Positions 1,426-16,160 of a stretch of 16,160 bases of DNA are shown here, one piece after another. Every line of letters begins with the position of its first letter. Positions within the stretch are counted from its first letter, which is position 1. The notes under the pieces are model-generated. The model saw only the letters and a list, made by a program, of their open reading frames with translations, was not told where the DNA came from and made no database searches. The position numbers were made by a program, and so were the translations under genes. Origin of the DNA: a virus (lineage: Duplodnaviria; Heunggongvirae; Uroviricota; Caudoviricetes); the IMG/VR virus record IMGVR_UViG_2512047041_000002, positions 1 through 16,160 of that record; one strand, 5' to 3'.

Positions 1426-2489
1426 ATTTCAATTTTGTCCCACTCCCTGCCTCTGTCATCACGATACTGTGATGCCATGGTGTCCGACTTATGCCCGAGA
1501 AGATGTTGAGCAAACTTATCGCTTATCTGCTTCTCATAGAGTCTTGCAGACAAACTGCGCAACTCGTGAAAGGTAGGCGGATCCCCTTCGAAGGAAAGAC
1601 CTGATGCTTTTCGTGCGCGCATAAAATACCTTGATACTGTGCCGGATGAAAGCGGTTCACGACGAGTAGATGCAATTATGGTTTCTCCGCCAAGAATCTC
1701 TTTGCATTTATCAAGTGTTTCCTTCATTGATATCCCGAGAGCATCAACATGCAATGCTGTTGGGATGGCAATTTTTACGCCTGTTTTGCTTTGCTCGACA
1801 TAAAGATATCCATCTACGATATCAGACCACTTCATTTCGCATAAATCACCAACTCGCTGCCCGGTAACAACAGCCAGTTCCATTGCAAGTCTAAGCCAAC
1901 ATGGTGATGATTCTGCTGCTTGATAAATTTTCAGGTATTCGTCAGCCGTAAGTCTTGATCTCCTTACCTCTGATTTTGCTGCGCGAGTGGCAGCGACCGG
2001 GTTTGTTGTTATATGGCCTTCAGCTATTGCCTCTCGGAATGCATCGCTCAGTGTTGATCTGATTAACTTGGCTGACGCCGCCTTGCCCTCGTCTATGTAT
2101 CCATTGAGCATTGCTGCAATTTCTTTTGTGGTGATGTCTTCAAGTGGAGCATCAGTCAGACCCCTCCTTATTGCTTTAATTTTGCTCATGTAATTTATGA
2201 GTGTCTTCTGCTTGATTCCTCTGTTGGCGAGAATTTTTTCGTAGCGATCAAGCCATGAATGTAACGTAACAGAATTATCACTGTTGATTCTCGCTGTCAG
2301 AGGCTTGTGTTTGTGTCCTGAAAATAACTCAATGTTGGCCTGTATAGCCTCAGTGATTGCTATCCTCCTGTCTCGGCCTAATCCAAACTCTTTACCCGTC
2401 CTTGGGTCCCTGTAGCAGTAATATCCATTGTTTCTTATATAAAGATTAGGGGGTAAATCCCGGCGCTCATGACTTCGCCTTCTTCCCAT
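1419..2489 (-). CDS. int: Tyrosine integrase, lambda Int (356 aa)
   Basis: Translation MGRRRSHERRDLPPNLYIRNNGYYCYRDPRTGKEF... ends ...QYRDDRGREWDKIEIK, which I recognise as lambda Int with only a few substitutions; located next to attL and overlapping xis as in lambda. Confidence 0.95.
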   Translation of the reverse strand: MGRRRSHERRDLPPNLYIRNNGYYCYRDPRTGKEFGLGRDRRIAITEAIQANIELFSGHKHKPLTARINSDNSVTLHSWLDRYEKILANRGIKQKTLINYMSKIKAIRRGLTDAPLEDITTKEIAAMLNGYIDEGKAASAKLIRSTLSDAFREAIAEGHITTNPVAATRAAKSEVRRSRLTADEYLKIYQAAESSPCWLRLAMELAVVTGQRVGDLCEMKWSDIVDGYLYVEQSKTGVKIAIPTALHVDALGISMKETLDKCKEILGGETIIASTRREPLSSGTVSRYFMRARKASGLSFEGDPPTFHELRSLSARLYEKQISDKFAQHLLGHKSDTMASQYRDDRGREWDKIEIK

Positions 2490-2685
2490 TTCTGATCCTC
2501 TTCAAAAGGCTACCTGTTACTGGTCGATTTAAGTCAACCTTTACCGCTGATTCGTGGAACAGATACTCTCTTCCATCCTTAACCGGAGGAGGGAATATCC
2601 TGCATTCGCGCACCCATCGACGAACTGTTTCAAGGCTTCTTGGGCGTCGCTGGCGTGCGTTCCACTCCTGAAGTGTCAAGTACAT
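2467..2685 (-). CDS. xis: Excisionase Xis (72 aa)
   Basis: Internal ATG at 2683..2685 gives MYLTLQEWNARQRRPRSLETVRRWVRECRIFPPPVKDGREYLFHESAVKVDLNRPVTGSLLKRIRNGKKAKS, matching lambda Xis as I recall it; the 102-aa ORF in the track is an upstream extension. Confidence 0.92.
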   Translation of the reverse strand: MYLTLQEWNARQRRPRSLETVRRWVRECRIFPPPVKDGREYLFHESAVKVDLNRPVTGSLLKRIRNGKKAKS

Positions 2686-2802
2686 CGCAAAGTCTCCGCA
2701 ATTACACGCAAGAAAAAGCCGCATTGATGCGGCGATGGTAGGTCTGGATATCATTGAGCAATGAACAGGCCTCATCGAGTGTGAGGCGGTGTTATTTCAT
2801 GG

Positions 2803-3147
2803 TTAGTCCTTGCGTAGCTCGCTGATTCTTCTGTAAGTCTCTGGTGCTTTGTTTCCGTGTATCTTCATTTCAAACTTCAACAGAGCAACGAGAGAATCCC
2901 ATTCGTTGAGGATGCCTTTGAATGCCGGAACGCGCTTTGCAACCTTGTCGAATGAATCTCTGATTTCTGGAATCTGCTCAACAAGTGCAACGCATCGCCG
3001 GAAGTCTGCTGCGTCATGTGGAGCGCCGAAGTGATGACCATAGATATTTTTTTTCAGTCCACATGCGATTGAGGCAAGAGTTGCGCTACTGATGCCGACA
3101 TCGCCAGTTGATTGCCATTTCAAAACCTTCATAGCCAAATCTGACAT
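2803..3147 (-). CDS. Hypothetical phage early-left protein (114 aa)
   Basis: ATG at 3145..3147 preceded by GGAGA Shine-Dalgarno; ORF MSDLAMKVLKWQSTGDVG...; no motif recognised. Track start at 3174 lacks an RBS. Confidence 0.6.
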   Translation of the reverse strand: MSDLAMKVLKWQSTGDVGISSATLASIACGLKKNIYGHHFGAPHDAADFRRCVALVEQIPEIRDSFDKVAKRVPAFKGILNEWDSLVALLKFEMKIHGNKAPETYRRISELRKD

Positions 3148-3173
3148 TTCTTGTCTCCAATAAAAAACCGCCA

Positions 3174-3341
3174 TCAGGCGTCTTGGTGTTCTTTCAGTTC
3201 TTCAATTCGAATATTGGTTACGTCTGCATGCGCTATCTGCGCCCATATCATCCAGTGGTTATAGCAGTCGTTGATGTCCTCTGCTTCGATAACCCTGTCG
3301 AATGGCTCTCCATTCCATTCACCTGTGACTCGGAAGTGCAT
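3174..3341 (-). CDS. Small hypothetical protein (55 aa), not in ORF track
   Basis: Hand translation of minus strand: MHFRVTGEWNGEPFDRVIEAEDINDCYNHWMIWAQIAHADVTNIRIEELKEHQDA*; GGAG Shine-Dalgarno 7 nt upstream; hydrophilic, protein-like composition, unlike the overlapping 61-aa track ORF. Confidence 0.45.
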   Translation of the reverse strand: MHFRVTGEWNGEPFDRVIEAEDINDCYNHWMIWAQIAHADVTNIRIEELKEHQDA

Positions 3342-3441
3342 TTATCATCTCCATAAAACAAAACTCGCCGTAGCGAGTTCAGATAAAAGAAATCCCCGCG
3401 AGTGCGAGGATTGTTATTCACCTTTGACGGCAAGTTGCAGG

Positions 3442-3969
3442 TTAGCCACGGTTAACCTCCTGCGGCGGTTCTGGCAGCGGCATCCAGTGGGTTACGTCAT
3501 CCAAGATATTTCCTGATAAATATGTGAAAGCTCTATATTTTTTGTAATCAATTGGACTCATTACCCAGTTCCAATATGCTGCCACTATTTGACCTTGACT
3601 AAATGCCAGTAACATTTTGGTGTCGTCCGGCATTCGCTCACTACAGCTTATCCAACCATCCGGAGTTACCGGCACTGGCTGAGCGGTATAAAGCGGTGTT
3701 ATATCTGCCCGAAAATTACATGCTTTATGCAGCCGCACCCCCCGTTCGACTTCTGCTTTGTCAGGATACATACCAGTGAACGTGTTATATTCACGGTCAA
3801 TTTGCGTGAAGGTTACCTTCCACGCCACCGGCTCTGCCTCAAGCGATGCCAGAGCAATTCGTGCCAGTTCTTCCGCTTCTTCTGCTGGCAGTACAACGTT
3901 GCTACCAGGTCTGTATGTTTCGCGCCACTGCTTGATTGTCAGCAGTCGCTCTTTGGTAATAGTGGTCAT
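3442..3969 (-). CDS. DUF551-like phage protein (175 aa)
   Basis: C-terminal PDGWISCSERMPDD...THWMPLPEPP signature that I associate with DUF551 phage proteins; ATG overlaps upstream stop (ATGA). Confidence 0.6.
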   Translation of the reverse strand: MTTITKERLLTIKQWRETYRPGSNVVLPAEEAEELARIALASLEAEPVAWKVTFTQIDREYNTFTGMYPDKAEVERGVRLHKACNFRADITPLYTAQPVPVTPDGWISCSERMPDDTKMLLAFSQGQIVAAYWNWVMSPIDYKKYRAFTYLSGNILDDVTHWMPLPEPPQEVNRG

Positions 3970-4481
3970 GCCGCGTTTCCTTCTTTCTTATTAACAATTA
4001 CACCGTCATATATTTCATTAAGGTGCCCTCTCAACTCCATGCGCCTTAATGCAGATAACATGTAATCGCATTCAACCTGCTTATTTCCAGTAAATGGCTT
4101 ATCGTCAGGATTACCCCAACAGCAATTACCCTTGGGCCATCCATGTACTTTCCGTACTCTTCCGTTAACAACGTGAAGTAATCCCCAGCCGGGAGGTAAA
4201 TCCTCAACTGAAATAATTTCCGGCTCACTAATAAAGAATCGCCAGTCGCCCATGCCAAGTGAGGGATTTTTACGGAAACGCTTTTTTCTATCTGCCAACA
4301 AGTCAGCACGAGAACACTTCGCCTCTATCAGGCATGATGCTGAATTTCTGAATCCCATAGCATCTGGCTGTTCTCCGGTACTGGTTACAGCTATAAAGCG
4401 GTCATGAAAACAGACCTTGAACCCGTTGCGCTTAAGGAACTTGTGCGCAATCTGACAGAGTTCGCTGTGTGTTAACGCCAT
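3966..4481 (-). CDS. Putative PD-(D/E)xK nuclease-fold protein (171 aa)
   Basis: Start MALTHSELCQ at 4479..4481 with AAGGAGAG Shine-Dalgarno; motif GEQPDAMGF ... CLIEAKCS resembles the PD...(D/E)xK signature; Cys-rich C-terminal region. Fold assignment is by motif only. Confidence 0.45.
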   Translation of the reverse strand: MALTHSELCQIAHKFLKRNGFKVCFHDRFIAVTSTGEQPDAMGFRNSASCLIEAKCSRADLLADRKKRFRKNPSLGMGDWRFFISEPEIISVEDLPPGWGLLHVVNGRVRKVHGWPKGNCCWGNPDDKPFTGNKQVECDYMLSALRRMELRGHLNEIYDGVIVNKKEGNAA

Positions 4482-4482
4482 A

Positions 4483-5076
4483 TCACTCTCCTTTGATGCG
4501 AATGCCAGCGGCACGGGAATCATTCCATCGCTTTACTTCTTCACGAATTACGTCAATGCATTCTTTCGAATCCATTAGGTAATCTTCATCAAAAAGACGT
4601 TCCTGTTCGTTTTCTATCGCAACAATGATTGCTTCAACTAACTTTTGTACCTGAGAACCACTTTCTAACTCTGCTATGCGCTTACTCCCATCCGAGATAA
4701 CGCCCTCGTAATACTCACGCTGCTCGTTGAGTTTTGATTTTGCCAACTCCAGTTGTTTTGTTAGTTCCGCAATACGGCAAACATCGTTGATACGCGTTTC
4801 CTCTAATGCGTTGATCTCATCCAACAATGCCAGCGCAACATTTGGATTAAAAGCAGCAATAAATTCAGCGTTTGCATAAGCCTGAACATCTGTTTCAACC
4901 AGGCAGTTAACATGACATTCTGCAATCACGCCACCGGGTTCTCCTTTCCATTTTTGGCAAACAAAAACTCCTGTTAAATTGCCGTGCTGGTTAACAGATG
5001 TATGCCCTACGATGTAGCTCCCTTTCGTTGCCTTTTCTGCCGCATCACGCAGTGCCTGATAATTAATTTCGCTCAC
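4483..5076 (-). CDS. Ead/Ea22-like early protein (197 aa, GTG start)
   Basis: GTG at 5074..5076 with GGAGGA Shine-Dalgarno, overlapping upstream stop (GTGA); MSEIN... N-terminus and ...AGIRIKGE C-terminus resemble Ea22-family proteins as I recall them. Confidence 0.55.
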   Translation of the reverse strand: MSEINYQALRDAAEKATKGSYIVGHTSVNQHGNLTGVFVCQKWKGEPGGVIAECHVNCLVETDVQAYANAEFIAAFNPNVALALLDEINALEETRINDVCRIAELTKQLELAKSKLNEQREYYEGVISDGSKRIAELESGSQVQKLVEAIIVAIENEQERLFDEDYLMDSKECIDVIREEVKRWNDSRAAGIRIKGE

Positions 5077-5297
5077 TCTTCATCCTCCAAGTCGGCAACG
5101 GCGTCCATCACATCAGAACCGCGAATAACCTCAAAAGCACGGCAGGCCATTTGAAATACCAGTTGCTCTTGCGGGTGAGGAGACTCCCAATATTTGAAGC
5201 CTGGGCGATGCGTGTACCCCATCATTGAATAAAAATCACCAGCAAGCTTAATCGCGGCATCGACAAGCTCTCTGTTAGTCATTCTTTTTCCGCTCAC
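5073..5297 (-). CDS. Hypothetical protein (74 aa, GTG start)
   Basis: GTG at 5295..5297 preceded by AAGGAGG; translationally coupled to both neighbours (4-nt overlaps). Confidence 0.5.
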   Translation of the reverse strand: MSGKRMTNRELVDAAIKLAGDFYSMMGYTHRPGFKYWESPHPQEQLVFQMACRAFEVIRGSDVMDAVADLEDEE

Positions 5298-5713
5298 TGG
5301 TTGCCTCCTTTGCGAAGCTGGGCGGCTAACTCATCACATATGTGCGTCAAAGAACAAAGTTTGATTGATGGATGTTCGCGCATCATCTCTACTCCCTGCG
5401 CCCGCACTTCAGACAGGAAAGCATCGGTGGCTGGCATATTTCCTGTTGCCTTCATTGCCTCCAAAATAACCAGAACGCCATCTCGCCCAACCACCTCAGC
5501 GATAACCTCGGTGTTGTCGCCAACAACATCGCAGAATGCCTGAACTGCCTTACGAGCCAGCGCACTCTCCGCCGCCAGCGCCGCGCACTTGGCCTCCGCT
5601 TCAGCAAATTTACGCACCAGATATTCAGCGTTTGTTTCGTTAACCTTTAAATCGCTTGGGATGCATTTACCTTTCAGGAATCCATCCATCTCAATTAGTG
5701 ACATTTGTTTCAT
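5294..5713 (-). CDS. Hypothetical protein (139 aa)
   Basis: ATG at 5711..5713 overlaps upstream stop (ATGA); part of a chain of coupled ORFs; no motif recognised. Confidence 0.55.
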
Positions 5714-5874
5714 TTCTTCCCACTCCGCAACATCGCATTCAGATATTTGTTTTGATTCACTGACGGAAAAGAATTTCTCTTTAGCAATTCCTCTCTCGAT
5801 GGCATTGGCTTTACGCGCTGGCGAATAATCATTTCTGCCGGAAGAATGCCGGGGTTGTATGCAAGTCCTCTCAT
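5710..5874 (-). CDS. Small hypothetical protein (54 aa)
   Basis: ATG at 5872..5874 preceded by GAGGA that overlaps the TGA stop of the upstream gene; the longer 101-aa track ORF overlaps the 5885..6181 gene and lacks an RBS. Confidence 0.4.
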
Positions 5875-5884
5875 GGTAAATTCC

Positions 5885-6181
5885 TCAGTCATTACTGATA
5901 GCGCCATAGCGTGATCGATAATTACGCAGCCGCGGGTCGATATATTCAGGGAAGTGGGTATATGTGGCTTTGCGGAATGGTCGGATTGATGTTTCGTTTG
6001 TTCGGTCCTTCTCATTTTTTAACGCGAGTTGTATATCGCGTCGGTACATCCGTTCTGCTTTTGTTTCTGGTGGCAGATCGATAAACGTGTCGAAAATGTT
6101 TTTGATATTTTCCAGCACCTCCGCCTTGGAGCTACCGGAGCAATTGCGCGGGTCATCCGCACCATACAGAGGCGCTGGCAT
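5885..6181 (-). CDS. Hypothetical protein (98 aa)
   Basis: ATG at 6179..6181, weak AAGG Shine-Dalgarno; fits the operon spacing. Confidence 0.5.
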
Positions 6182-6204
6182 AATGGGAGCCTTATTTTCA
6201 GTAA

Positions 6205-6792
6205 TCAGAAAGCAGGGTAATCGTTCTTGCTGTAACCATAATCATCTGCATGATTCTGGCTTACGTTTTTAGAGCGATTGTCTTTATCTTTGAGATTGGC
6301 AACCATGTTGGCGATAGTTTCTGGTTGCTTGCCTTCTGCCTTTTCTTTAAGGGTTTGACCTGTTTGTGCAATAAACGGGATGCGTATTTCCATCTGGTAG
6401 TTGTCTGCGCCAGTCTTTTTGTTTGTGGTTAATACTTTCTGGAGCACTAACCCGATTTTCTTTCCATGAAATTCAGGTGCAACAAATTTACTGGCGGAAA
6501 CCATATGCTGCGTTAATTGTCCAATCCCGGCACACCCCATCATGGCGTGAACGACATTTGCGCCAAATTTGTTTTCCGTTCCGTCATTTTTCTGAACACA
6601 GACGCTAAGATATTGGATTTTACGTCCGTCGTCGGATTCTCCAGAAAACTCAATAAATTTGGCTCCTTTTTCTGATTGCTTTAGTTCTGCTTCAGTAATG
6701 GTAATGATATGGGCGCCAGTTTCGTTAATAAAACCACCTTGCCCTGCGGTCAGTGCTGCTTCTTCGTTATAAGTAAAAATCACGTTGCTCAT
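6205..6792 (-). CDS. Sak4-partner protein (195 aa), possibly ssDNA-binding (DUF669-like); not a canonical SSB
   Basis: Directly downstream of and overlapping (ATGA) the Sak4-like ATPase gene; Lys-rich acidic C-terminal tail ending DYPAF; the family name is from memory and uncertain. Confidence 0.5.
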   Translation of the reverse strand: MSNVIFTYNEEAALTAGQGGFINETGAHIITITEAELKQSEKGAKFIEFSGESDDGRKIQYLSVCVQKNDGTENKFGANVVHAMMGCAGIGQLTQHMVSASKFVAPEFHGKKIGLVLQKVLTTNKKTGADNYQMEIRIPFIAQTGQTLKEKAEGKQPETIANMVANLKDKDNRSKNVSQNHADDYGYSKNDYPAF

Positions 6793-7469
6793 GCGGCGTT
6801 TTCCTTAATTTGATGAACATTATTGATGCCGTAGTAATCACAAACAGTGGCATCGACGAAAGAGAGATCGTTATCAATCTCATTGGAATCAAACATTCCC
6901 ATTGGGGATTTGACAGTGTCTGCACCGTTGTTTTTCGTGGTGAAAAAGAACTGGTCATCGCGGGTAAGAGTGCGAAGAACTATAGTAAACATGCCTTCGA
7001 CAGTGATTTTCTCGTCCAGCATTTTGCCGATAGTTTTCATTTTCACGCGCCCCATAGGGGTTTCTTCGGTATGTGCAAGAAAATAGACTCTCAGGTCATC
7101 AGGTGCATCCTGTGCAGCCTTAATCACCTCCCATGCGTGGCGGCCTATCTCAGTAAATTTATCAAACGATTTTTCTTCTGAGCGGCGCATAAACTCATTG
7201 CTCATCACATACTGGAAGTCATCAACAATAACGATTCTTTTTCCGTATTCGTGAGCACGCTTAATTACAGCAACTATTACGTCCCATTTGTCAGTGGTAA
7301 CTACGGTTCCTTTTTTTGCTCTGGCATCCCATGCAAGCCAGTCTTTTGATTTAAATGGTAGCGGCTTGCCTATTGGTTTTATAAGTATTGCTTCCTCTGG
7401 ATTGATATTTCTCATGCTGGTTGATTTTCCGGTGCCAGATTCACCGAGTATTAATGTCGCAGTTCCCAT
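6789..7469 (-). CDS. Sak4-type RecA-like core ATPase (226 aa), phage recombination/annealing protein
   Basis: Walker A GESGTGKST near N-terminus, Walker B-like RIVIVDDF, and a size typical of Sak4; occupies the position of lambda Red genes. Confidence 0.7.
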   Translation of the reverse strand: MGTATLILGESGTGKSTSMRNINPEEAILIKPIGKPLPFKSKDWLAWDARAKKGTVVTTDKWDVIVAVIKRAHEYGKRIVIVDDFQYVMSNEFMRRSEEKSFDKFTEIGRHAWEVIKAAQDAPDDLRVYFLAHTEETPMGRVKMKTIGKMLDEKITVEGMFTIVLRTLTRDDQFFFTTKNNGADTVKSPMGMFDSNEIDNDLSFVDATVCDYYGINNVHQIKENAA

Positions 7470-7477
7470 AATTTGCC

Positions 7478-7666
7478 TCAGAATGGTAATTCGGATGGGC
7501 AGGAAAGAAATTCGCGCTCATTCATGCGCTCTCTTTGCGCCTGCCATAAACAAAGTTGTTTCTTTGATTTATCTCCCGCTTTACGCCAGTAACGAGCCTC
7601 AGCAATGTGATATTCTCTTTTTAATCGACTTAACTCTGGAGTTTTCGCCAGTTCTACCGGAATCAT
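7478..7666 (-). CDS. Hypothetical protein (62 aa)
   Basis: ATG at 7664..7666 with GGAGG Shine-Dalgarno, overlapping the Kil-like stop (ATGA); basic, Arg/Lys-rich. Confidence 0.5.
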   Translation of the reverse strand: MIPVELAKTPELSRLKREYHIAEARYWRKAGDKSKKQLCLWQAQRERMNEREFLSCPSELPF

Positions 7667-7776
7667 TTTGACCTCCATTTTCTGTAGGCTTCTACGGCTT
7701 CACGAAACATCTTTTCATCGCCAATAAAAGTGGCGATAGTGAATTTAGTCTGGATAGCCATAAGTGTTTTATCCAT
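7663..7776 (-). CDS. Kil-like small protein (37 aa)
   Basis: MDKTLMAIQTKFTIATFIGDEKMFREAVEAYRKWRSK resembles lambda Kil as I recall it; position immediately downstream of cIII, overlapping its 3' end, matches lambda gene order. Confidence 0.5.
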   Translation of the reverse strand: MDKTLMAIQTKFTIATFIGDEKMFREAVEAYRKWRSK

Positions 7777-7909
7777 TTTTGGGAACTCCTGGCTGATTAA
7801 GTATGTCGATAAGGCGTTTCCATCCATCACGTAATTTACGTGTGATTCGTTCAAGTAAAGATTCGGAAGGGCAGCCAGCAACAGGCCACCCTGCAATGGC
7901 ATATTGCAT
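7769..7909 (-). CDS. cIII: CIII (46 aa; shorter than the 54-aa lambda protein)
   Basis: ATG at 7907..7909 with AGGAG Shine-Dalgarno; MQYAIAGWPVAGCPSESLLERITRKLRDGWKRLIDILNQPGVPKNG* matches lambda CIII as I recall it up to PKNG, then stops. Confidence 0.85.
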   Translation of the reverse strand: MQYAIAGWPVAGCPSESLLERITRKLRDGWKRLIDILNQPGVPKNG

Positions 7910-7970
7910 GGTGTGCTCCTTATTTATACATAACGAAAAACGCCTCGAGTGAAGCGTTATTGGTATGCAT

Positions 7971-7996
7971 ATAAAAAGGCCCTCACACTGGAGGGC
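7971..7996 (-). terminator. Intrinsic terminator-like hairpin upstream of cIII (tL1-like position)
   Basis: On the minus strand GCCCTC-cagtgt-GAGGGC (6-bp GC stem) followed by CTTTTTAT. Confidence 0.5.
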
Positions 7997-8261
7997 AAAG
8001 AAGATTTCCAATAATCAGAACAAGTCGGCTCCTGTTTAGTTACGAGCGACATTGCTCCGTGTATTCACTCGTTGGAATGAATACACAGTGCTTCTCTGTG
8101 CTAAATAATTAAATCATATTCTGATTTGGTTAGTTTATACGCACCTCCTCTGGTGTAATATGCAAATCTGTCTTTGCTTCCATCAGAATTGTATACCCAC
8201 CCACCAAATGGAAAGATAGTGAACCGCCCCGGGTTTCCTGGAGAGTGTTTTATCTGTGAAC

Positions 8262-9152
8262 TCAGGCTGCCAGATCATCGTTTCCGATGGAAGCATAATA
8301 AGCTTTTTCTGCTTCTGCCGGAGGAGTATGGCCCAGCCTTTCCAGCAATCGTCGATTGTTATACCAGTCCACCCACGTGAGTGTGGCCAGTTCCACTTCT
8401 GCACGGTTTTTCCAGCTCTTACGGTGTATTACCTCCGCTTTGTAAAGACCATTGATGCTCTCCGCCATCGCGTTGTCATACGAGTCGCCTGTACTTCCTG
8501 TTGATGCCAGTAATCCGGCTTCCTTAAGCCGCTGTGTGTAGGCCAGCGATACATACTGAGAACCTTTATCACTGTGATGGACCGTGCCGGACGGTCGACG
8601 GGCCCATAACGCCTGCTCCAGTGCATCCAGCACGAATGTCGTTTCCATGGACGATGAGACCCGCCACCCCACGATGTATCCGGCAAACACATCAATGATG
8701 AACGCCACATAGACGAAGCCCCGCCATGTGCTGACGTAAGTAAAATCAGCCACCCACAGCTGGTCAGGTCGTTCTGCCACGAACTGACGGTTTACGCGGT
8801 CGCCTGCGGCAACGGCTTTCCGGCTGATGGTCGTACGGACCTTTTTACCCCGGAGAACACCGGCAAGTCCCATAACCGCCATGAGACGTGCCACAGTGCA
8901 TCTGGCCACTCTGATACCTTCCCGTAACAACTGACGCCAGACTTTACGCACACCGTATACCTTGTGATTTTCATCGTATACGCGCTGTATCTCTTTCTTC
9001 AGCCAGTCATCGCGCTGCGCACGGGCACTGCGTTTATCCGGATGATGTCGCTGTTGCTGACAGTGGTAATACGTTGACGGGGCAATATGCAGTTCGCTGC
9101 ATAGCGGTCCGACCCCGTACTGCTCACGCAGCTTATCCAGCAGTGGCATCAT
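8262..9152 (-). CDS. IS629-like transposase OrfB (296 aa, DDE catalytic domain)
   Basis: IS3-family OrfB-like sequence (…[31 protein letters not shown]…[11 protein letters not shown]…) in the -1 frame relative to orfA. Confidence 0.85.
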
Positions 9153-9475
9153 TTTTTCCAGAGGCGGTCGAACTCCGCCTTCGCAAAATAAGCGGAAGCC
9201 TGGCGAAGGATATCGTTACTGCGGCGCAGTTCACGATTTTCACGTTCCAGCTCTTTCAGACGCTGACGTTCAGCGGTGGTGAGCCCTCCATCACCGCCCC
9301 CGGTATCCCGCTCATGCTGGCGAACCCAGACACGCAGAGTCTCCGGCGTACAGCCAATCTTTGGAGCAATGGAACAAATTGTCGCCCATTGTGAGTCATA
9401 TTCGCCCTGACTTTCCAGAACCATACGGACTGCCCGTTGACGGACTTCGGGGGAAAAACGAGTATTTTTAGTCAT
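9149..9475 (-). CDS. IS629-like transposase OrfA (108 aa, HTH)
   Basis: [30 protein letters not shown]... with C-terminal leucine-zipper-like region; ends in an A6 run (GGAAAAAATGA) at the orfA/orfB overlap. Confidence 0.85.
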
Positions 9476-9622
9476 CCTGTTTACCTCTTTCTCAGGAAGT
9501 TTAGTCTCCAGGATTCCCGGGGCGGTTCATCTCCAGAACTTGGCAGGATTACAAGTTCATACGGAGAACTTGCACGAGCAGCAACAAAGCCACTTCGATA
9601 TGTTGAACAGACAGGGCGATCT

Positions 9623-10030
9623 ATGCCAGCCATTAGCACTCTTGAGAATGGCCTTCATCCAGTTTTAGAGAGCGCATTGTCTGGCGCTTTTAGAACTACT
9701 GGCACTATCGCAGGGTTCTCTGGAGGAGGCGTTATTGGAGCAATAGCGGGTGGCGCTGCAGGTGGGGCAATTGATGCAATGGCAAAAGGAGCGATAGCGA
9801 AATTATCCGCAACTAGAAGCGGTCGTTACGCTATTGAAAAGGCTGTTCAAGAGGCAACAAAGGCAGTTAAGGTTGGGGCAAGTGATGGCGCATTAGCGGC
9901 GGCGGAACGCAGATTTATGGCAAATAAGGCCGCCGTAAAAGCAATACGCGAGGCACTAGGAAACGAAGAGTTCCAGCGTTTAGCAAGAGCTGGAATTGTG
10001 GCATCGCTAAGCGGAATGGCACAGGAGTAA
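9623..10030 (+). CDS. Glycine-zipper protein (135 aa), possible membrane-active/bacteriocin-like; 5' end may be truncated by the IS
   Basis: TIAGFSGGGVIGAIAGGAAGGAIDAMAKGAI GxxxG-repeat segment followed by Ala/Lys-rich amphipathic helices; weak RBS at the first ATG and the frame stays open back to the IS boundary. Confidence 0.4.
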   Translation: MPAISTLENGLHPVLESALSGAFRTTGTIAGFSGGGVIGAIAGGAAGGAIDAMAKGAIAKLSATRSGRYAIEKAVQEATKAVKVGASDGALAAAERRFMANKAAVKAIREALGNEEFQRLARAGIVASLSGMAQE

Positions 10031-10360
10031 TTAGTCATCCATGGATGGATTGAGCTTATCTCGTGTTGATGTGGCAATTTTCCCAACATTTTTCAACCAA
10101 GATTTTAAGAAGGATATGTCGTCCTTAATATCATGAATATCCTCATTCTTTATACGATCAACCTTATCCTCTAAGCTCTCTATAGAACGCTCAATGCTAG
10201 ACAGAGAGATTTTTAAGTCCCCTTGCTCACGTTCCAGTGAGGATTTGAGAGCACAATATTCGTTTTCTAGAATTCCTATTTTTTTTGTTAGAGAGTGCAT
10301 TCGATACTCATACACCAAACCAGAAACGACTAATGCAGCCAACAGAAACCATTCAAGCAC
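10031..10360 (-). CDS. Membrane-anchored coiled-coil protein (about 110 aa, GTG start)
   Basis: GTG at 10358..10360 preceded by AAGGAGG; N-terminal hydrophobic helix LEWFLLAALVVSGLVYEY followed by heptad-like SLEREQGDLKISLSSIERSIESLEDKVDRIK; stop abuts the convergent glycine-zipper stop (TAATTA). Confidence 0.5.
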   Translation of the reverse strand: MLEWFLLAALVVSGLVYEYRMHSLTKKIGILENEYCALKSSLEREQGDLKISLSSIERSIESLEDKVDRIKNEDIHDIKDDISFLKSWLKNVGKIATSTRDKLNPSMDD

Positions 10361-10390
10361 ACCAACCTCCTTAGTTTTGAGCAGGATACC

Positions 10391-10756
10391 ATGAAAAAAG
10401 TTAACATTGGAAACGTACCAAAGATGCTCGTTCCGCTCTTTGAGAGCGGTACAATTGTGTGTTGTAGAGACTTTCCAGAATGGCAACGCCTGCATCAAAA
10501 ACTTGGCGTTGACGTGCAGGACTCGGATGCCAACGGAGCGTCTCATACAATGAGCAGCGAGAATGGTGTTTTGCATGTGATAGGTGTGTTCAATGGCAAA
10601 CTATCTACTATTGCCCATGAGTGCGCTCACATGGCATTCGATATCTGCTCAAGGGTCGGTGTTGATGTTGAACCAGGAAGAGCCAATGAGACTTACTGCT
10701 ACTTAATGAGCAGGCTTGTTGAGTTCTGCGAGCGACATATCAAAAAGCCGGAGTGA
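10391..10756 (+). CDS. Small HExxH-motif protein (121 aa), possible ImmA/IrrE-like metallopeptidase-fold protein
   Basis: ATG at 10391 with AGGA 4 nt upstream; motif TIAHECAHMAFD (HExxH) in the C-terminal half; two Cys pairs. Assignment by motif only. Confidence 0.45.
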   Translation: MKKVNIGNVPKMLVPLFESGTIVCCRDFPEWQRLHQKLGVDVQDSDANGASHTMSSENGVLHVIGVFNGKLSTIAHECAHMAFDICSRVGVDVEPGRANETYCYLMSRLVEFCERHIKKPE

Positions 10757-10764
10757 CCCGGCTT
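10745..10764. terminator. Stem-loop between convergent genes (possible bidirectional terminator)
   Basis: AAGCCGG-agtgac-CCGGCTT overlapping the HExxH gene stop; flanked by A-run on one side and T-rich sequence on the other. Confidence 0.3.
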
Positions 10765-10769
10765 GATTA

Positions 10770-10949
10770 TTACTTTTTGCTGTCTGGAGTTCGCTTATCC
10801 AATACCCAGCCATGACCTGGCTTTGTTGTTGGTGGAAGCCTTTCGTTGTCCTTGACGGTGGCAAAATTGTCTTTCTTACCGCCGCGTGGGCCAACTTCTT
10901 GGTATATTCCGCCGTTTTTTCCTGTGTTTTCACCTGGTTTTTTCGCCAT
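10770..10949 (-). CDS. Small Gly/Lys-rich hydrophilic protein (59 aa)
   Basis: ATG at 10947..10949 with GAGGT Shine-Dalgarno; MAKKPGENTGKNGGIYQEVGPRGGKKDNFATVKDNERLPPTTKPGHGWVLDKRTPDSKK; TTGACT -35-like hexamer upstream. Confidence 0.5.
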   Translation of the reverse strand: MAKKPGENTGKNGGIYQEVGPRGGKKDNFATVKDNERLPPTTKPGHGWVLDKRTPDSKK

Positions 10950-11039
10950 GATATACCTCAACATGCACCCGTTATTGGGCGATTAAATATTGATCTCATT
11001 TTATGAGTAGTCAATATGGTCCAAAAAAGGTAAAAATTA

Positions 11040-11064
11040 ACCCACCGTCAGGTGGGTTTTTTAT
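11040..11064. terminator. Intrinsic terminator hairpin, likely bidirectional; ends the Mnt-like/ClpP-like operon
   Basis: ACCCACC-gtca-GGTGGGT followed by TTTTTTAT on the plus strand and by TTAATTTTTACC on the minus strand; 24 nt beyond the ClpP-like stop. Confidence 0.6.
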
Positions 11065-11087
11065 AAGGAGTAATCATGATTTACCCA

Positions 11088-11624
11088 TCAAACAACCCAC
11101 CAGTTTGCCTGATTGGATGCCAGCCTTGCAGTTTTTATGGAATTAATTATGCCATGCTCAAGAGCCTTGTTAGCATCCAAAATGGTCGAGTCTGCTATCA
11201 GGGATGCCCACCTAATATGGGTTCCGATGTCGATATTGAACGTCTCAACGAAGCGATCAAGATCGTTATCGAGGCATTTCCCGTACTCTCTCAATCTGGC
11301 ATGGTCGGCGGCTGGGGAGGCAAAGCACCATAATAGAGGATGTAACAGGAATCTTGATAATGGGTTTGCGAAACGTTCTGAGCCAGCCAGGAAAACGATA
11401 TTAGCTATGGATTCAACATTGCTTATGTTGTGAGTTCTAACGGTAACAGGGAGTGACTTAAGAAAGTTATACGCAGTAAAGCCAGCGGCAGTTTCCCCTC
11501 CCTGACTTGATATATGGATATTTAATTCAGTTGCGCCTTGAGATAATGCGGTGAGACAGTGGTTCTGAAGTTGCCCAACAGTGGCAGTGTTAACGGGGCA
11601 TAAGAAATGAATTGTGTGCAGCAT
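11088..11624 (-). CDS. ClpP-fold (S14-family-like) serine peptidase homologue (178 aa), non-structural context
   Basis: By-eye alignment to E. coli ClpP blocks: ISSQGGETAAGFTAYNFL vs INSPGGVITAGMSIYDTM; ESIANIVFLAGSERFANPLSRFLLHP vs [29 protein letters not shown] (Ser and His aligned); C-terminal ALEHGIINSI vs AVEYGLVDSIL. Start ATG overlaps the Mnt-like stop (TAATG). Confidence 0.6.
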   Translation of the reverse strand: MLHTIHFLCPVNTATVGQLQNHCLTALSQGATELNIHISSQGGETAAGFTAYNFLKSLPVTVRTHNISNVESIANIVFLAGSERFANPLSRFLLHPLLWCFASPAADHARLREYGKCLDNDLDRFVETFNIDIGTHIRWASLIADSTILDANKALEHGIINSIKTARLASNQANWWVV

Positions 11625-11872
11625 TATTTTTCATCCTTAGCATACATGGTCTTTAGCGTCTCAAGTAGCGCCTCTTTGAATTTATCAGCTTCTTGGTTAG
11701 CGAATCCTTCAAGTGAGCGAGAGCCATCAAGATTATCAACATGTTTTTGAAGGATAAGCACGATCTCTGAGTTCATTGATCTGCCGTTTTTATCCGCTTC
11801 TTGCTGAATGCGTTTCTTTAAATAGTCTGGAATCCTAATCCCCAATGGACTGATATCTCTTGCACCTTTCAT
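11624..11872 (-). CDS. Mnt-like ribbon-helix-helix repressor (82 aa)
   Basis: ATG at 11870..11872 with GAGGAG Shine-Dalgarno; MKGARDISPLGIRIPDYLKKRIQQEADKNGRSMNSEIV... shows the RHH pattern of P22 Mnt (NGRSMNSE) plus a C-terminal extension; divergent from the Arc-like gene. Confidence 0.75.
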   Translation of the reverse strand: MKGARDISPLGIRIPDYLKKRIQQEADKNGRSMNSEIVLILQKHVDNLDGSRSLEGFANQEADKFKEALLETLKTMYAKDEK

Positions 11873-11894
11873 TTCTCCTCCTGCACGCTGTGCG

Positions 11895-11967
11895 TAGCTA
11901 CACAGTGTAGGCAAAAAATTTTTGACTTTAAATAAACACGGTGTAGTATTTAGTTATCACGGTGTAG
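11895..11967. promoter_or_regulatory. immI divergent promoter/operator region
   Basis: Perfect palindrome CTACAC-A-GTGTAG (11898..11910); two direct copies of CACGGTGTAG (11937..11946, 11958..11967) 21 bp apart; TTGACT (11922..11927) with TAGTAT 16 bp downstream as a candidate rightward promoter overlapping the repeats. Confidence 0.55.
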
Positions 11968-11981
11968 CAAGTGAGGTGGAA

Positions 11982-12122
11982 ATGAAAGTTAGAGACATCG
12001 CTCCATTAGGGATTCGTATCCCGCCAGAGATTAAAGAAAAATTGAAGGAAAAGGCTAAGGAGGAGGGCAGGTCTTTAAATTCAGAAATAGTGAAGCGTCT
12101 TATTCGCAGCCTAAAAAGTTGA
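11982..12122 (+). CDS. Arc-like ribbon-helix-helix repressor (46 aa)
   Basis: ATG at 11982 with GAGGTGG Shine-Dalgarno; [46 protein letters not shown]; the RHH strand [11 protein letters not shown] is nearly identical to the Mnt-like protein; the 66-aa track ORF is an upstream extension. Confidence 0.7.
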
Positions 12123-12170
12123 AGCCCCAACTGCTGGAACAGTCGGGGCTTCGGTATCAACAAATCAGAT
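12113..12170 (-). ncRNA. Candidate sar-like antisense RNA opposing the antirepressor RBS (hypothetical)
   Basis: Minus-strand TTGACT (reverse complement of 12200..12205) and AATAAT (12175..12180) with a 19-bp spacer; downstream a 12-bp imperfect hairpin (12121..12152) followed on the minus strand by AACTTTTTAG. Confidence 0.25.
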
Positions 12171-12183
12171 AGGAATTATTGAT

Positions 12184-13113
12184 ATGACAAGTTTAGCAAA
12201 GTCAACATTAAATTGCACTAACAGCATCACCATTTCAGACGTCAAGATTCATATGGATTCAGAGGGGCGTTACTCGCTTAATGACCTGCACAAGGCATCA
12301 GGTAAAGAGCGTCGTCATGAGCCTGCGGCGTGGCTGCGACTCGAACAAACCAATGAGTTAGTTCAAGAAATTCTAAATACACAGATGTGTGTATTTAAAA
12401 ATGGCGATAACTTTAATTCTTCAGAATCGCAGATTAAGAAGCCAATGGACTCTAAGAAGGGTCGCTACGGAGGCACCTACGTGTGCAAGGAGCTTGTTTA
12501 CTCCTACGCCATGTGGATTAGCGCAGCCTTTGCGCTGAAGGTTATCCGTGCATATGACGCAATGGTTACTGCCACACAAGAGAGGAAAGCTATTGGCGGT
12601 AAAACTTCAGTAGCTGAACGCACACCGCTACGAGATGCAGTAAACATGCTGGTAGGAAAGAAAGGACTTCGCTATGACGATGCATACAATATGGTTCATC
12701 AGCGTTTTGGTATTGACAGCATTGATGAACTTTCAATTGAACAAATCCCGCTGGCCGTAGAGTACATCCACAGGGTAGTGCTTGAAGGTGAGTTCATCGG
12801 CAAACAAGAGAAGAAAACCAACGAGCTTTCTGCAAAAGAAGCAAACAGCCTTGTATGGTTATGGGATTATGCCAACCGCTCACAGGCATTATTCCGCGAA
12901 CTGTATCCGGCATTAAAACAAATTCAATCGAACTATTCCGGCAGATGTCATGACTGCGGTTATGAGTTCTCCCGTATTATCGATATGGCGAGAGATGTTT
13001 TAATCAACCATACACGAGATGTTGATATTAATGAGCCAGACGGACCAACGAATCTTTCCGCATGGATGAGACTTAAGAATAAAGAATTACCTCCTTCAGT
13101 ACATAACTACTGA
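12184..13113 (+). CDS. Antirepressor with N-terminal KilA-N domain (309 aa), Ant-like
   Basis: Position directly after the Arc-like gene as in P22 immI; N-terminal region ([25 protein letters not shown]...[23 protein letters not shown]) resembles KilA-N; AGGA RBS. Confidence 0.65.
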
Positions 13114-13213: not shown

Positions 13214-15130
13214 ATGAGAGACATTACAGCCAATGTGATCGTATCGATGCCTTCGCAACTCTTCACTATGGCGCGTTCTTTTAAAGCCGTAGCTAATGGC
13301 AAAATTTATATCGGTAAAATTGACACTGATCCTGTAAATCCAGAAAACCAGATTCAGGTCTATGTGGAGAATGAAGACGGTTCTCACGTTCCTGTTTCGC
13401 AACCAATAATCATTAACGCTGCTGGATATCCTGTATATAACGGACAGATTGCCAAATTCGTTACCGTGCAAGGCCATTCTATGGCTGTTTATGATGCGTA
13501 TGGTGCGCAGCAGTTCTATTTTCCTAATGTGCTGAAGTATGACCCTGATCAACTACGGCAGCAATTAGAAGACCCAGATGGAGCGAATAAATACCCAAAA
13601 CTTCAGATAGCAAGATGGAGAGACAGTTATGATGTAAGAGGTTGGGGGGCTATTGGTGATGGTGTTCATGATGATACATCAGCTCTATCAGAATTACTTT
13701 CTGTTGCAACAGGTGGTGAAAAGATAGATGGGCGAGGGCTTACTTTTAAAGTATCAACTCTTCCAGATGTCAGTCGATTTAAAAATGCTCGTTTTTTATT
13801 TGAGAGAATACCGGGTCAGCCTCTTTTTTATGCTTCTGAAGATTTTATCCAGGGAGAGTTATTTAAAATTACAGATACACCGTGGTACAACGCCTGGACG
13901 CAGGATAAAATGTTTGTATATGACAATGTCATCTATGCGCCTTTTATGGCTGGAGACCGCCATGGTGTAAATAACCTCCATGTTGCATGGGTTCGCTCAG
14001 GAGATGACGGGAAGACCTGGACAACGCCGGAATGGCTTACAGATTTACATGAAAACTATCCCACAGTTAACTATCACTGCATGAGTATGGGGGTTGTCAG
14101 AAATCGCCTTTTTGCTGTAATTGAGACGCGGACCGTGAGAGGAAATAAACTGCAGGTTGCAGAGTTGTGGGATCGCCCAATGAGTCGCAGCCTTCGCGTT
14201 TATGGTGGTATAACGAAAGCAGCAAATCAGCAAGTCGCTTATATTCGCATTACTGATCACGGATTATTTGCTGGTGATTTTGTCAACTTCTCAAACTCTG
14301 GTGTTACAGATGTTACCGGGAATATGACGGTGACTACTGTTATTGATAAAAATACCTTTACAGTTACGACGCAAAATACCCAGGATGTGGATCAGAATAA
14401 CGAGGGTAGATACTGGAGTTTTGGCACATCATTTCACTCGTCACCATGGAGAAAAACCAGTCTTGGAACTATTCCTTCTTTTGTTGACGGAAGCACTCCT
14501 GTTACTGAGATTCACAGTTTTGCGACGATTAGCGATAACAGTTTTGCTGTTGGCTACCATAATGGTGATATTGGTCCACGCGAGCTTGGGATACTCTATT
14601 TCTCTGATGCTTTCGGTTCTCCTGGTAGCTTTGTTCGCAGACGCATACCTGCAGAATATGAGGCGAATGCATCTGAGCCATGTGTAAAATATTATGATGG
14701 CATTCTGTATCTGACGACCAGGGGGACATTAAGTACTCAACCCGGTAGTTCATTGCACAGAAGCTCTGATTTAGGTACATCATGGAATTCTCTTCGCTTC
14801 CCAAATAATGTTCATCACTCAAACCTTCCTTTTGCCAAAGTTGGCGATGAGCTGGTTATTTTTGGCAGTGAGCGCGCATTTGGTGAGTGGGAAGGAGGAG
14901 AACCTGATAACCGTTATGCAGGAAATTATCCAAGAACATTTATGACCAGAGTTAACGTCAATGAGTGGAGTCTGGATAATGTAGAGTGGGTTAATGTTAC
15001 TGATCAGATTTATCAGGGCGGAATAGTTAACTCTGCGGTTGGTGTTGGTTCAGTTTGTATCAAAGACAACTGGCTGTACTACATTTTCGGTGGGGAAGAC
15101 TTTTCTAAACCCATGGAGCATAGGGGATAA
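13214..15130 (+). CDS. Tailspike: P22-like head-binding N-terminal domain plus glycosidase-type receptor-binding domain with Asp-box (BNR) motifs; likely the 5' part of a frameshifted longer gene
   Basis: First ~115 aa ([11 protein letters not shown]...[38 protein letters not shown]...[15 protein letters not shown]...NVLKYDPDQ) closely resemble the P22 gp9 N-terminus as I recall it; [14 protein letters not shown] motif; two Asp-boxes SGDDGKTW and SSDLGTSW. Confidence 0.8.
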
Positions 15131-16160
15131 CAACAGAAAATATCCTTATGTTCACGATGGTCACCCGGCTGATTTGTATTGTTTCAGGGTGAAAATTAAA
15201 CAGGAAGAATTTGTTTCAAGGGATTTTGTCTACGGAGCCACTCCTAACAGAACGCTTCCTACTTTTATGTCGACGTCAGGCGTGAGGACGGTTCCTGTAC
15301 CCGTTGATTTCACAGATGATGTTGCCGTCCAGTCACTGACTGTCCATGCAGGTACATCAGGACAAGTTCGCGCGGAAGTCAAACTTGAGGGTAATTACGC
15401 CATTATTGCGAAGAAAGTACCGTCTGATGATGTTACCGCTCAGAGATTAATCGTTAGCGGCGGTGAAACAACGTCTTCAGCAGATGGTGCAATGATAACG
15501 TTGCATGGTTCCAGAAGCAGTACTCCACGTCGCGCGGTATATAACGCACTCGAACATCTTTTTGAGAACGGAGATGTTAAACCTTATCTTGATAATGTAA
15601 ATGCTCTTGGTGGTCCGGGAAACAGGTTCTCGATAGTTTATCTTGGCTCCAATCCTGTGGTTACCAGTGACGGAACATTAAAGACAGAGCCGGTCTCTCC
15701 TGACGAAGCATTGCTGGATGCCTGGGGTGACGTCAGGTATATCGCTTATAAATGGCTGAACGCTGTCGCTATAAAGGGGGAAGAAGGGGCGAGGATACAT
15801 CATGGTGTAATCGCGCAGCAACTTCGTGATGTTCTTATTTCTCACGGACTCATGGAAGAAGAAAGCACAACATGCCGCTATGCCTTTCTTTGCTATGACG
15901 ATTATCCCGCAGTATATGATGACGTCATTACTGGCCAAAGGGAAATGCCGCTGACTGATAATGACGGGAGCATCATTGTTGATGAGGATGATAATCCAGT
16001 GATGGTAATAGAAGACATCATTGAGCGCGTTGAAATAACGCCAGCAGGATCTAGATGGGGGGTCAGACCTGATCTCTTATTCTATATCGAGGCAGCATGG
16101 CAGCGCAGAGAAATGGATAAGATAAAAGCTAGGTTAGACTTAATAGAAGGGAAGCACTAA
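15039..16160 (+). CDS. Tailspike C-terminal region with S74-type intramolecular chaperone domain signature; probably continues 13214..15130 in another frame
   Basis: Frame open from 15027, overlapping the end of the upstream ORF; contains TSDGTLK (Ser-x4-Lys spacing as I recall for the autocleavage site of such domains) and [11 protein letters not shown] motif; track start is a TTG with no RBS, so an independent start is doubtful. Confidence 0.55.

Follow-up and report, generated by a model that had tools for sequence, protein, structure and literature searches.

Genes of the Block and Their Junctions

The subject of this analysis is a five-gene block in the leftward early operon of a tailed-phage sequence (Caudoviricetes), IMG/VR record IMGVR_UViG_2512047041_000002, which was analyzed over its full length of 16,160 nucleotides (nt; hereafter the window). 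An earlier note on this DNA had described the block as a coupled early-left unit with a possible nuclease, and its five open reading frames (ORFs) were all found, on the minus strand. In the direction of transcription, they are the EaE-like gene (5294..5713, 139 amino acids (aa), ATG start; phrog_614 and phrog_492), the phrog_4132 gene (5073..5297, 74 aa, GTG start), the Ead/Ea22-like gene (4483..5076, 197 aa, GTG start; Pfam PF13935), the PD-(D/E)xK nuclease gene (3966..4481, 171 aa, ATG start), and the DUF551 (EaA-like) gene (3442..3969, 175 aa, ATG start; Pfam PF04448). The window is a P22/HK620-like lambdoid prophage of Escherichia coli, integrated beside ybhC. The block is part of the delayed-early accessory 'ea' region of its leftward PL operon, the counterpart of lambda exo–xis, and segments of this kind are ordinary and already well known in phage genomes.

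The reported overlaps and abutments of 1–4 nt were confirmed. The four internal junctions are GTGA (−4), GTGA (−4), a 1-nt gap (+1), and ATGA (−4). Shine–Dalgarno-like (SD) motifs (AAGGAGG, GGAGGA, AAGGAG, and GAAGGA) lie 6–8 nt before each start, within the preceding ORF. From geometry alone, that is, from overlapping or abutting stop and start codons with the ribosome-binding site (RBS) inside the upstream ORF, translational coupling of the block genes is predicted. The RefSeq start for the 74-aa gene, an ATG at 5282, would give an 11-nt gap instead of an overlap.

The coupled run reaches upstream beyond the reported block. The stop codon (TGA) of the DUF2737 gene (5710..5874, minus strand, 54 aa; Pfam PF10930, 108 bits; a RefSeq coding sequence (CDS)) overlaps the ATG of the 139-aa gene in an ATGA junction (−4). 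At the 15 junctions between cIII and int, the genes overlap in 9 cases and are separated by ≤10 nt in another 3. Tight packing is a property of the whole operon and is usual for lambdoid early operons; the five genes do not form a distinct unit in this respect, and their head-to-tail overlaps arise because the entire operon is built likewise. Clear punctuation occurs near the block only behind the DUF551 gene, where a terminator scan placed two terminator-like hairpins with T-runs on the minus strand (3412–3391 and 3380–3361) within a gap of 100 nt. These hairpins (3361–3412), located before the next small gene (3174–3341), may be a leftward-operon terminator that is passed only with N antitermination. 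A promoter scan found no excess of sigma-70-like promoters within the block (5 seen versus 9.7 expected).

Boundaries of the Nuclease Cassette

The nuclease gene was compared across a locus panel of 80 IMG/VR contigs that carry it at ≥97% identity. In an anchored alignment, the gene was 96.9–99.0% identical across the 79 other loci. On the upstream side, identity dropped from 0.99 to random 8–30 nt before the ATG. Downstream of the stop codon, it stayed at 0.8–0.9 for 117–136 nt and then became random. The upstream (left) cassette boundary (4482..4511, minus strand; about 8–30 nt) is made up of the RBS and the last codons (...GIRIKGE, stop) of the preceding gene. Among the 79 upstream ORFs, which comprise 46 different ones, 76 end 1 nt before the nuclease ATG, nearly all of them with the IRIKGE tail. 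A longer nuclease start at 4523 (185 aa) was considered and rejected, as the homologues begin at the position of the ATG at 4481; the conserved RBS and 1-nt junction recurring in 76 of 79 loci also contradict it.

The downstream (right) mosaic boundary (3830..3969, minus strand) is a leader of about 45 codons, MTTITKERLL...ALASLEAEP, belonging to the gene after the nuclease. Its consensus, M-T/I-TITKERLLTIKQWRETYGPGSNVVLPAEEAEELARIALASLEAEP, is common to 72 of the 80 downstream ORFs, the total lengths of which range from 61 to 468 aa, and 78 of the 80 begin at the same ATGA. The leader acts as an in-frame recombination joint, travelling with the nuclease cassette and also behind other cassettes. 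We additionally observed that this portable leader precedes a PVAW motif in frame and fronts many C-terminal cargoes (DUF551 in 49 of 80), behind several upstream cassettes (L006–L170).

A search with the leader only returned 73 usable loci, of which 29 have the nuclease before the leader and 44 do not. In at least 9 of the 44 nuclease-free loci, '...GIRIKGE TGA T' is joined directly to ATGACCACTATT, which contains the leader ATG. These direct tail–leader joins, at least nine in number, are precise absences of the 512-nt nuclease cassette. Other nuclease-free loci hold unrelated cassettes in the slot, for example genes ending in FAPGHKVLRINK (14 loci) or ELKLRNVEIKVK (8 loci), among others. 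Similar mosaic joints were seen at the RBS/GTG junction of the 74-aa gene and at the first 36 codons of the EaE-like gene. The nuclease gene is an independently assorting single-gene cassette with sharp breakpoints. The early operons of P22-like phages are known to be highly mosaic (PMC2629481), and early operons show less frequent co-transfer than do the immunity and late operons (PMC9836094). Phage recombinases exchange segments via short, diverged homologies of a few tens of bases (PMC3945230).

Conservation of the Five-Gene Set

The earlier note had treated the five genes as a unit, and this did not hold. At least 80% of window positions 3300–5900 was found in one place in a single genome among 5,426 complete E. 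coli genomes, that of strain N32, which carries the same prophage. None of 50,697 phage records reached this coverage, and the best records attained 49% in 5 or 6 pieces. All five genes occur together in one of the 80 nuclease loci (L006). Counted by allele in the same panel, the 74-aa gene is present in 7 loci, the 139-aa allele of the window in 2, and its Ea22 and DUF551 alleles in 1 each. Counted by kind, an Ea22-type gene ends at the nuclease start in 45 loci, a downstream ORF ends in DUF551 in 49, and both are found in 32, as compared with about 28 expected under independence. The five-gene set is not a co-inherited multi-gene system, and, as judged from these sequence collections, this allele combination appears essentially unique.

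Fold, Catalytic Residues, and Relatives of the Nuclease

The PD...ExK-like motif that had been read in the 171-aa protein was borne out. In an alignment of 39 relatives, with identities down to 59%, residues D27, E37, D40, E53, K55, D60, D64, K67, R70, and D79-W80-R81 are invariant. The AlphaFold model (predicted local distance difference test (pLDDT) 83, predicted template modeling score (pTM) 0.77) has the order helix–strand–strand–strand–helix–strand, which is the PD-(D/E)xK core. The predicted catalytic residues are D40, E53, and K55; in this model, D40 lies just before strand 2 (41–45), and E53-x-K55 falls within strand 3 (48–54). The protein is most likely an active Mg2+-dependent DNA endonuclease.

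The same alignment did not support the Cys-rich region that had been noted in this protein. Only C9 is invariant, C50 and C138 are nearly so, and the CC pair at 120–121 is replaced in most relatives. A zinc-binding feature was rejected, since the cysteines are not kept as a motif and there is no CxxC pattern.

Several comparisons pointed to the MmcB-like nucleases. A Foldseek comparison run against the BFVD viral models returned matches named 'DNA repair protein MmcB-like' and 'MmcB family DNA repair protein'. A sequence profile search of the PDB picked up 3dnx, though not significantly (E 0.51), on account of the common motif IE.K.SR.D..AD, and phrog_5429 ('DNA repair protein') matched at 0.005. 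The entry 3dnx (SPO1766) is taken here as the structure of PF06319/DUF1052. In structure, the nuclease is closest to this family, as represented by its solved structure or its named members. The PF06319 profile itself matched neither the window nuclease (Pfam, E up to 10) nor the 39 relatives, nor the homologues from phages FKP10 and MAR10. The nuclease family is a sister of the MmcB-like nucleases and not a member by the Pfam profile test. For the Pfam Hjc family (PF01870), 17 of the 39 relatives gave sub-threshold matches (best E 0.004, about 17–18 bits versus the gathering cut-off of 21.1), and the window nuclease itself gave no match to this profile. Pfam, NCBIfam, and PADLOC contained no match for the window nuclease. 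The MmcB of Caulobacter is described as a PD-(D/E)xK endonuclease implicated in crosslink repair (PMC9578287).

Distribution and Neighborhoods of the Nuclease

An exhaustive profile search yielded 3,213 nuclease clusters at 50% identity, 2,415 of them at E ≤1e-10. The nuclease gene is present in 642 phage records and in 909 of the 5,426 complete E. coli genomes (17%), at about 97–99% nucleotide identity and in up to 6 copies per genome. In the E. coli search, 248 of 1,295 nuclease-gene sites were on plasmids, which suggests phage-plasmids or plasmid-borne prophage fragments.

Outside E. coli lambdoids, the homologues keep other company. The one in Vibrio phage MAR10 follows a primase/helicase and an SNF2-type helicase. 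Those in Klebsiella phage FKP10 and Salmonella phage BSP101 lie immediately upstream of the DNA primase. In Dickeya phage Ds25CZ, the homologue occupies the equivalent site and is followed by an inserted homing endonuclease and then by an unannotated ORF of primase size. FKP10, BSP101, and Ds25CZ represent three Ackermannviridae genera in two subfamilies. The annotated homing endonuclease of Ds25CZ (L211 3094–3750) precisely separates the nuclease homologue from the primase-sized gene; in the relatives from Salmonella and Klebsiella, these two genes are direct neighbors. Homologues of 62–69% identity are also found in lambdoid prophages of Morganella and Rahnella. There they belong to the nin region of the rightward operon, with NinB, NinF, and NinG as neighbors or a RecA-dependent nuclease close by. 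None of the MAR10, Ackermannviridae, and nin contexts includes Ea22, nor is DUF551 adjacent to the nuclease in them. These neighborhoods, with replication genes and in the nin region, suggest a role in replication, recombination, or repair. The link to anti-defense or host takeover that had been drawn for genes of this region found no backing here, as PADLOC gave no match and the homologues elsewhere stand in replication and recombination contexts.

The Other Proteins of the Block

Immediately after the nuclease, a DUF551-like protein had been predicted, and it was found there: the 175-aa protein matched PF04448 over the full-length profile with 79.6 bits (cut-off 22; 3.2e-22) at residues 105–170. 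It has at least 7,995 clusters of homologues, some of them named EaA or Eaa. Its AlphaFold 2 model (pLDDT 70) comprises leader helices, a small alpha/beta module (49–93), a disordered linker (96–103), and the DUF551 domain (105–170), which is beta-rich with a pLDDT of 82–88. A fold search with this model gave no informative match to solved structures. DUF551 is a portable domain (PMC10834534), and the sole experimental hints on it come from YfdS of the cryptic prophage CPS-53 (PMC4776307).

The 197-aa protein matched PF13935 with 98.3 bits (cut-off 27), its residues 2–138 aligning with profile positions 1–139, which cover the N-terminal and coiled-coil part. In Ea22 proteins, the N-terminus and coiled coil are conserved and the C-terminal domains are portable, and the proteins are pro-lysogenic in lambda and Stx phages; the lambda-type C-terminus is a dimeric domain with a structure determined by nuclear magnetic resonance (PMC10834534). 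The C-terminus of the window protein appears to be a portable module unlike the lambda type, so the protein would not be lambda Ea22 proper. The same module was found intact on a different N-terminus in locus L085. A phmmer search of the 197-aa protein against all PDB chains (E up to 10) returned no Ea22 chain and no match for the C-terminus.

For the 139-aa protein, the tblastn matches fall under features named EaE, Eae, or hkaH in P22-like and HK620-like phages. Its residues 1–36 are 91–97% identical in phages in which the remainder differs, i.e., they are a conserved leader on otherwise different proteins. No Pfam, NCBIfam, PADLOC, or PDB match was obtained for this protein. The 74-aa protein matched phrog_4132 only in the PHROG collection (8.7e-43). 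Its gene is 97–99% identical in 7 of the 80 loci, where the RBS (AAGGAGG, 6 nt upstream) and GTG junction are constant despite differing upstream genes. NCBIfam and PADLOC gave no match for any of the ten proteins tested, and the 171-, 175-, 197-, and 139-aa sequences gave chance-level matches only against all PDB chains.

Setting of the Block in a Defective Prophage

The flanking genes agree with the early-left location that had been proposed. Downstream of the block are xis (Pfam Exc) and int. Upstream lie Abc2 (anti-RecBCD; 5885–6181), which follows the gene of an SSB-like protein (6205–6792; phrog_743), then a Sak4-like single-stranded DNA-annealing ATPase (6789–7469; phrog_2872), Kil, and cIII with its Rfam thermoregulator. 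Further upstream are the sar RNA, Arc, Ant, and the tailspike. The recombination module (6205–7469) is HK620-like rather than P22-like, and Erf is absent from it. A ClpP-like protease subunit (178 aa, Pfam CLP_protease; 11088–11914) is encoded directly downstream of the Arc-like repressor gene. It is an unusual passenger for an immI-like region next to ant and the sar RNA.

Window positions 2351–12900 match the chromosome of E. coli strain N32 at 99.99% identity, and positions 1–2356 match it at 100%; N32 has one additional insertion sequence (IS) within int. The window itself contains an IS629-like element of the IS3 family at 8219–9529 (1,311 bp, 25-nt terminal inverted repeats, orfA/orfB with an ALIL frameshift pseudoknot). 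This element is located about 300 nt upstream of cIII, and on its far side a 3'-terminal fragment of an oppositely oriented DNA-transfer gene (9530–10030) is all that is found. Since the IS is followed by this fragment only, PL, N, and the genes for immunity, replication, lysis, and the head do not stand where they would be expected; they are missing or have been relocated. This prophage copy is defective, and its ea operon is without a native promoter. Separation of the operon from PL and N by the IS makes expression of the block in this genome doubtful, and co-expression from PL cannot be assumed. The strict co-expression deduced earlier from the overlaps is not supported: the packing argument applies to the operon as a whole, and the IS intervenes here. 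The tailspike gene also seems to be split into overlapping ORFs (13214–15130 and 15039–16160). They match consecutive parts of phrog_1171 (positions 181–645 and 632–954), which suggests a frameshift and fits a decaying prophage.

The RefSeq annotation of the N32 sequence (NZ_CM165895.1, 100% identical) divides the 171-codon nuclease ORF into a 110-aa CDS and a 'frameshifted' pseudogene, and it marks the Ea22-like gene as 'incomplete, missing C-terminus'. As neither frame is interrupted and both run colinear with homologues of full length, the flags seem to be annotation artefacts brought about by mosaic relatives.

Interpretation and Alternatives

Taking the above together, the block is very likely a row of five independent accessory cassettes, co-transcribed in the PL operon when the promoter is present. 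The cassettes would be exchanged singly among phages through recombination at short conserved boundaries. On one side, the boundary used would be about 10–30 nt with the RBS, and on the other about 120–136 nt, corresponding to the leader of some 45 codons. Each gene's RBS sits in the last codons of its upstream neighbor. With stop/start overlaps and embedded RBSs of this kind, cassettes could be swapped without disturbing downstream translation. As for the nuclease, it may act on branched or damaged DNA like its closest relatives, the MmcB-like nucleases, and, more distantly, the Hjc-type resolvases. We infer both the substrate and the role, and we put the chance that it works as a metal-dependent endonuclease on such DNA in phage replication, recombination, or repair at about even. 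The explanation as a whole, mosaic ea cassettes together with an MmcB-like nuclease, is in our judgment probable.

Some points weigh against this explanation. The link to MmcB is structural, together with a sub-threshold motif, and no Pfam or NCBIfam model matches the nuclease family. The neighborhoods in virulent phages and in nin regions are suggestive of function and not proof of it. The 80-locus panel consists of the best matches from one collection and is partly redundant, being made up of E. coli prophage fragments. Each gene has its own SD motif, so independent initiation is possible. Finally, the lambdoid ea region also houses host-interaction genes, which leaves room for a counter-defense role.

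As an alternative, the five genes could be a dedicated co-expressed system, for anti-defense or host takeover, with interdependent parts. Such a system would account for genes of a single operon and strand whose stop and start codons overlap, and the order Ea22-type gene, nuclease, DUF551-type gene does recur in 32 of 80 loci and in phage EC.W1-9, while TL-2011b has the nuclease followed by DUF551. However, the allele set is found in 1 of 5,426 genomes and in no phage record, and an identical nuclease is accompanied by freely varying neighbors. The Ea22-type/DUF551 pairing is near independence (32 versus about 28), the empty sites are precise, and the homologues in other genera lie in the nin region or by a primase without Ea22 or DUF551 neighbors. 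PADLOC gave no match, and we regard this system as highly improbable. Another alternative, in which the 171-aa nuclease by itself is a counter-defense or host-takeover effector that degrades host DNA or the nucleic acid of a defense system, draws on its accessory ea location near the anti-RecBCD protein Abc2 and its sporadic occurrence (909 of 5,426 E. coli genomes). Among the related PD-(D/E)xK folds are nucleases of defense systems, such as Can2, Card1, and restriction enzymes. The genomic contexts elsewhere do not fit such an effector, which we consider unlikely.

Rare PD-(D/E)xK homing endonucleases are known. The nuclease could be a selfish, free-standing homing-type cassette that cuts the empty junction between the Ea22 tail (IRIKGE) and the leader and is then copied in. 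It is indeed precisely present or absent between conserved flanks, with 97–99% nucleotide identity in very different surroundings and up to 6 copies per genome. Against homing, unrelated cassettes fill the same slot, which makes the site a general recombination junction; the guanine–cytosine content is not atypical, there is no DNA-recognition extension, and diverged family members are stably syntenic in virulent phages. Short conserved boundaries and phage recombinases are enough to explain the pattern (PMC3945230), and homing seems to us quite improbable. If it were true, the mosaicism of lambdoid ea regions would be driven in part by selfish nucleases. The block could also be decaying junk in a dead prophage. 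This prophage is defective, with an IS in place of PL/N through most late genes and with a split tailspike, and for the identical N32 sequence RefSeq puts a 'frameshifted' flag on part of the nuclease and an 'incomplete' flag on the Ea22 gene. Yet each of the five frames is open and runs colinear with homologues of full length, no premature stops or frameshifts were found in them, the Ea22 C-terminal module is intact in L085, and the same cassettes occur in complete phages. Decay of the block can hardly be credited.

Under the preferred explanation by single-cassette exchange, the locus is a clean example of lambdoid cassette swapping that leaves translation undisturbed. The nuclease family is the component of the block that deserves follow-up. 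It is a common phage family without a Pfam or NCBIfam model, to which a fold, catalytic residues, and a nearest relative (MmcB-like) can now be assigned, and the assignment is directly testable.

Comparison with Known Systems

With respect to the MmcB-like nucleases (PF06319/DUF1052; 3dnx; Caulobacter MmcB), one difference lies in the setting, which is an SOS-regulated chromosomal gene in their case and a phage or prophage early-operon gene here. The window nuclease also has a C-terminal helical extension (about 114–160), which tblastn did not detect in the Ackermannviridae homologues. Its structural similarity to archaeal Hjc (PF01870) and the small PD-(D/E)xK resolvases is no better than that to restriction enzymes.

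The block as a whole resembles the lambda exo–xis region and the ea region of P22 and HK620 (Ea22, EaA, EaE, hkaG, and hkaH). It occupies the same site between the recombination genes and xis–int. The Ead/Ea22, DUF551/EaA, EaE, and DUF2737 families, the mosaic behavior, and the portable C-terminal domains are shared. Compared with lambda Ea22, the Ea22-like protein of the window is without the lambda-type C-terminal domain. To our knowledge, the nuclease cassette is absent from lambda's own exo–xis region.

No sequence or fold relationship was found between the nuclease and NinG/Rap or RusA. The nin-region accessories NinB/Orf and NinG/Rap are likewise non-essential, delayed-early, and DNA-acting. 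The window nuclease gene differs from them in lying in the leftward operon and not in the nin region, whereas in Morganella and Rahnella its homologues are found among or near these accessories.

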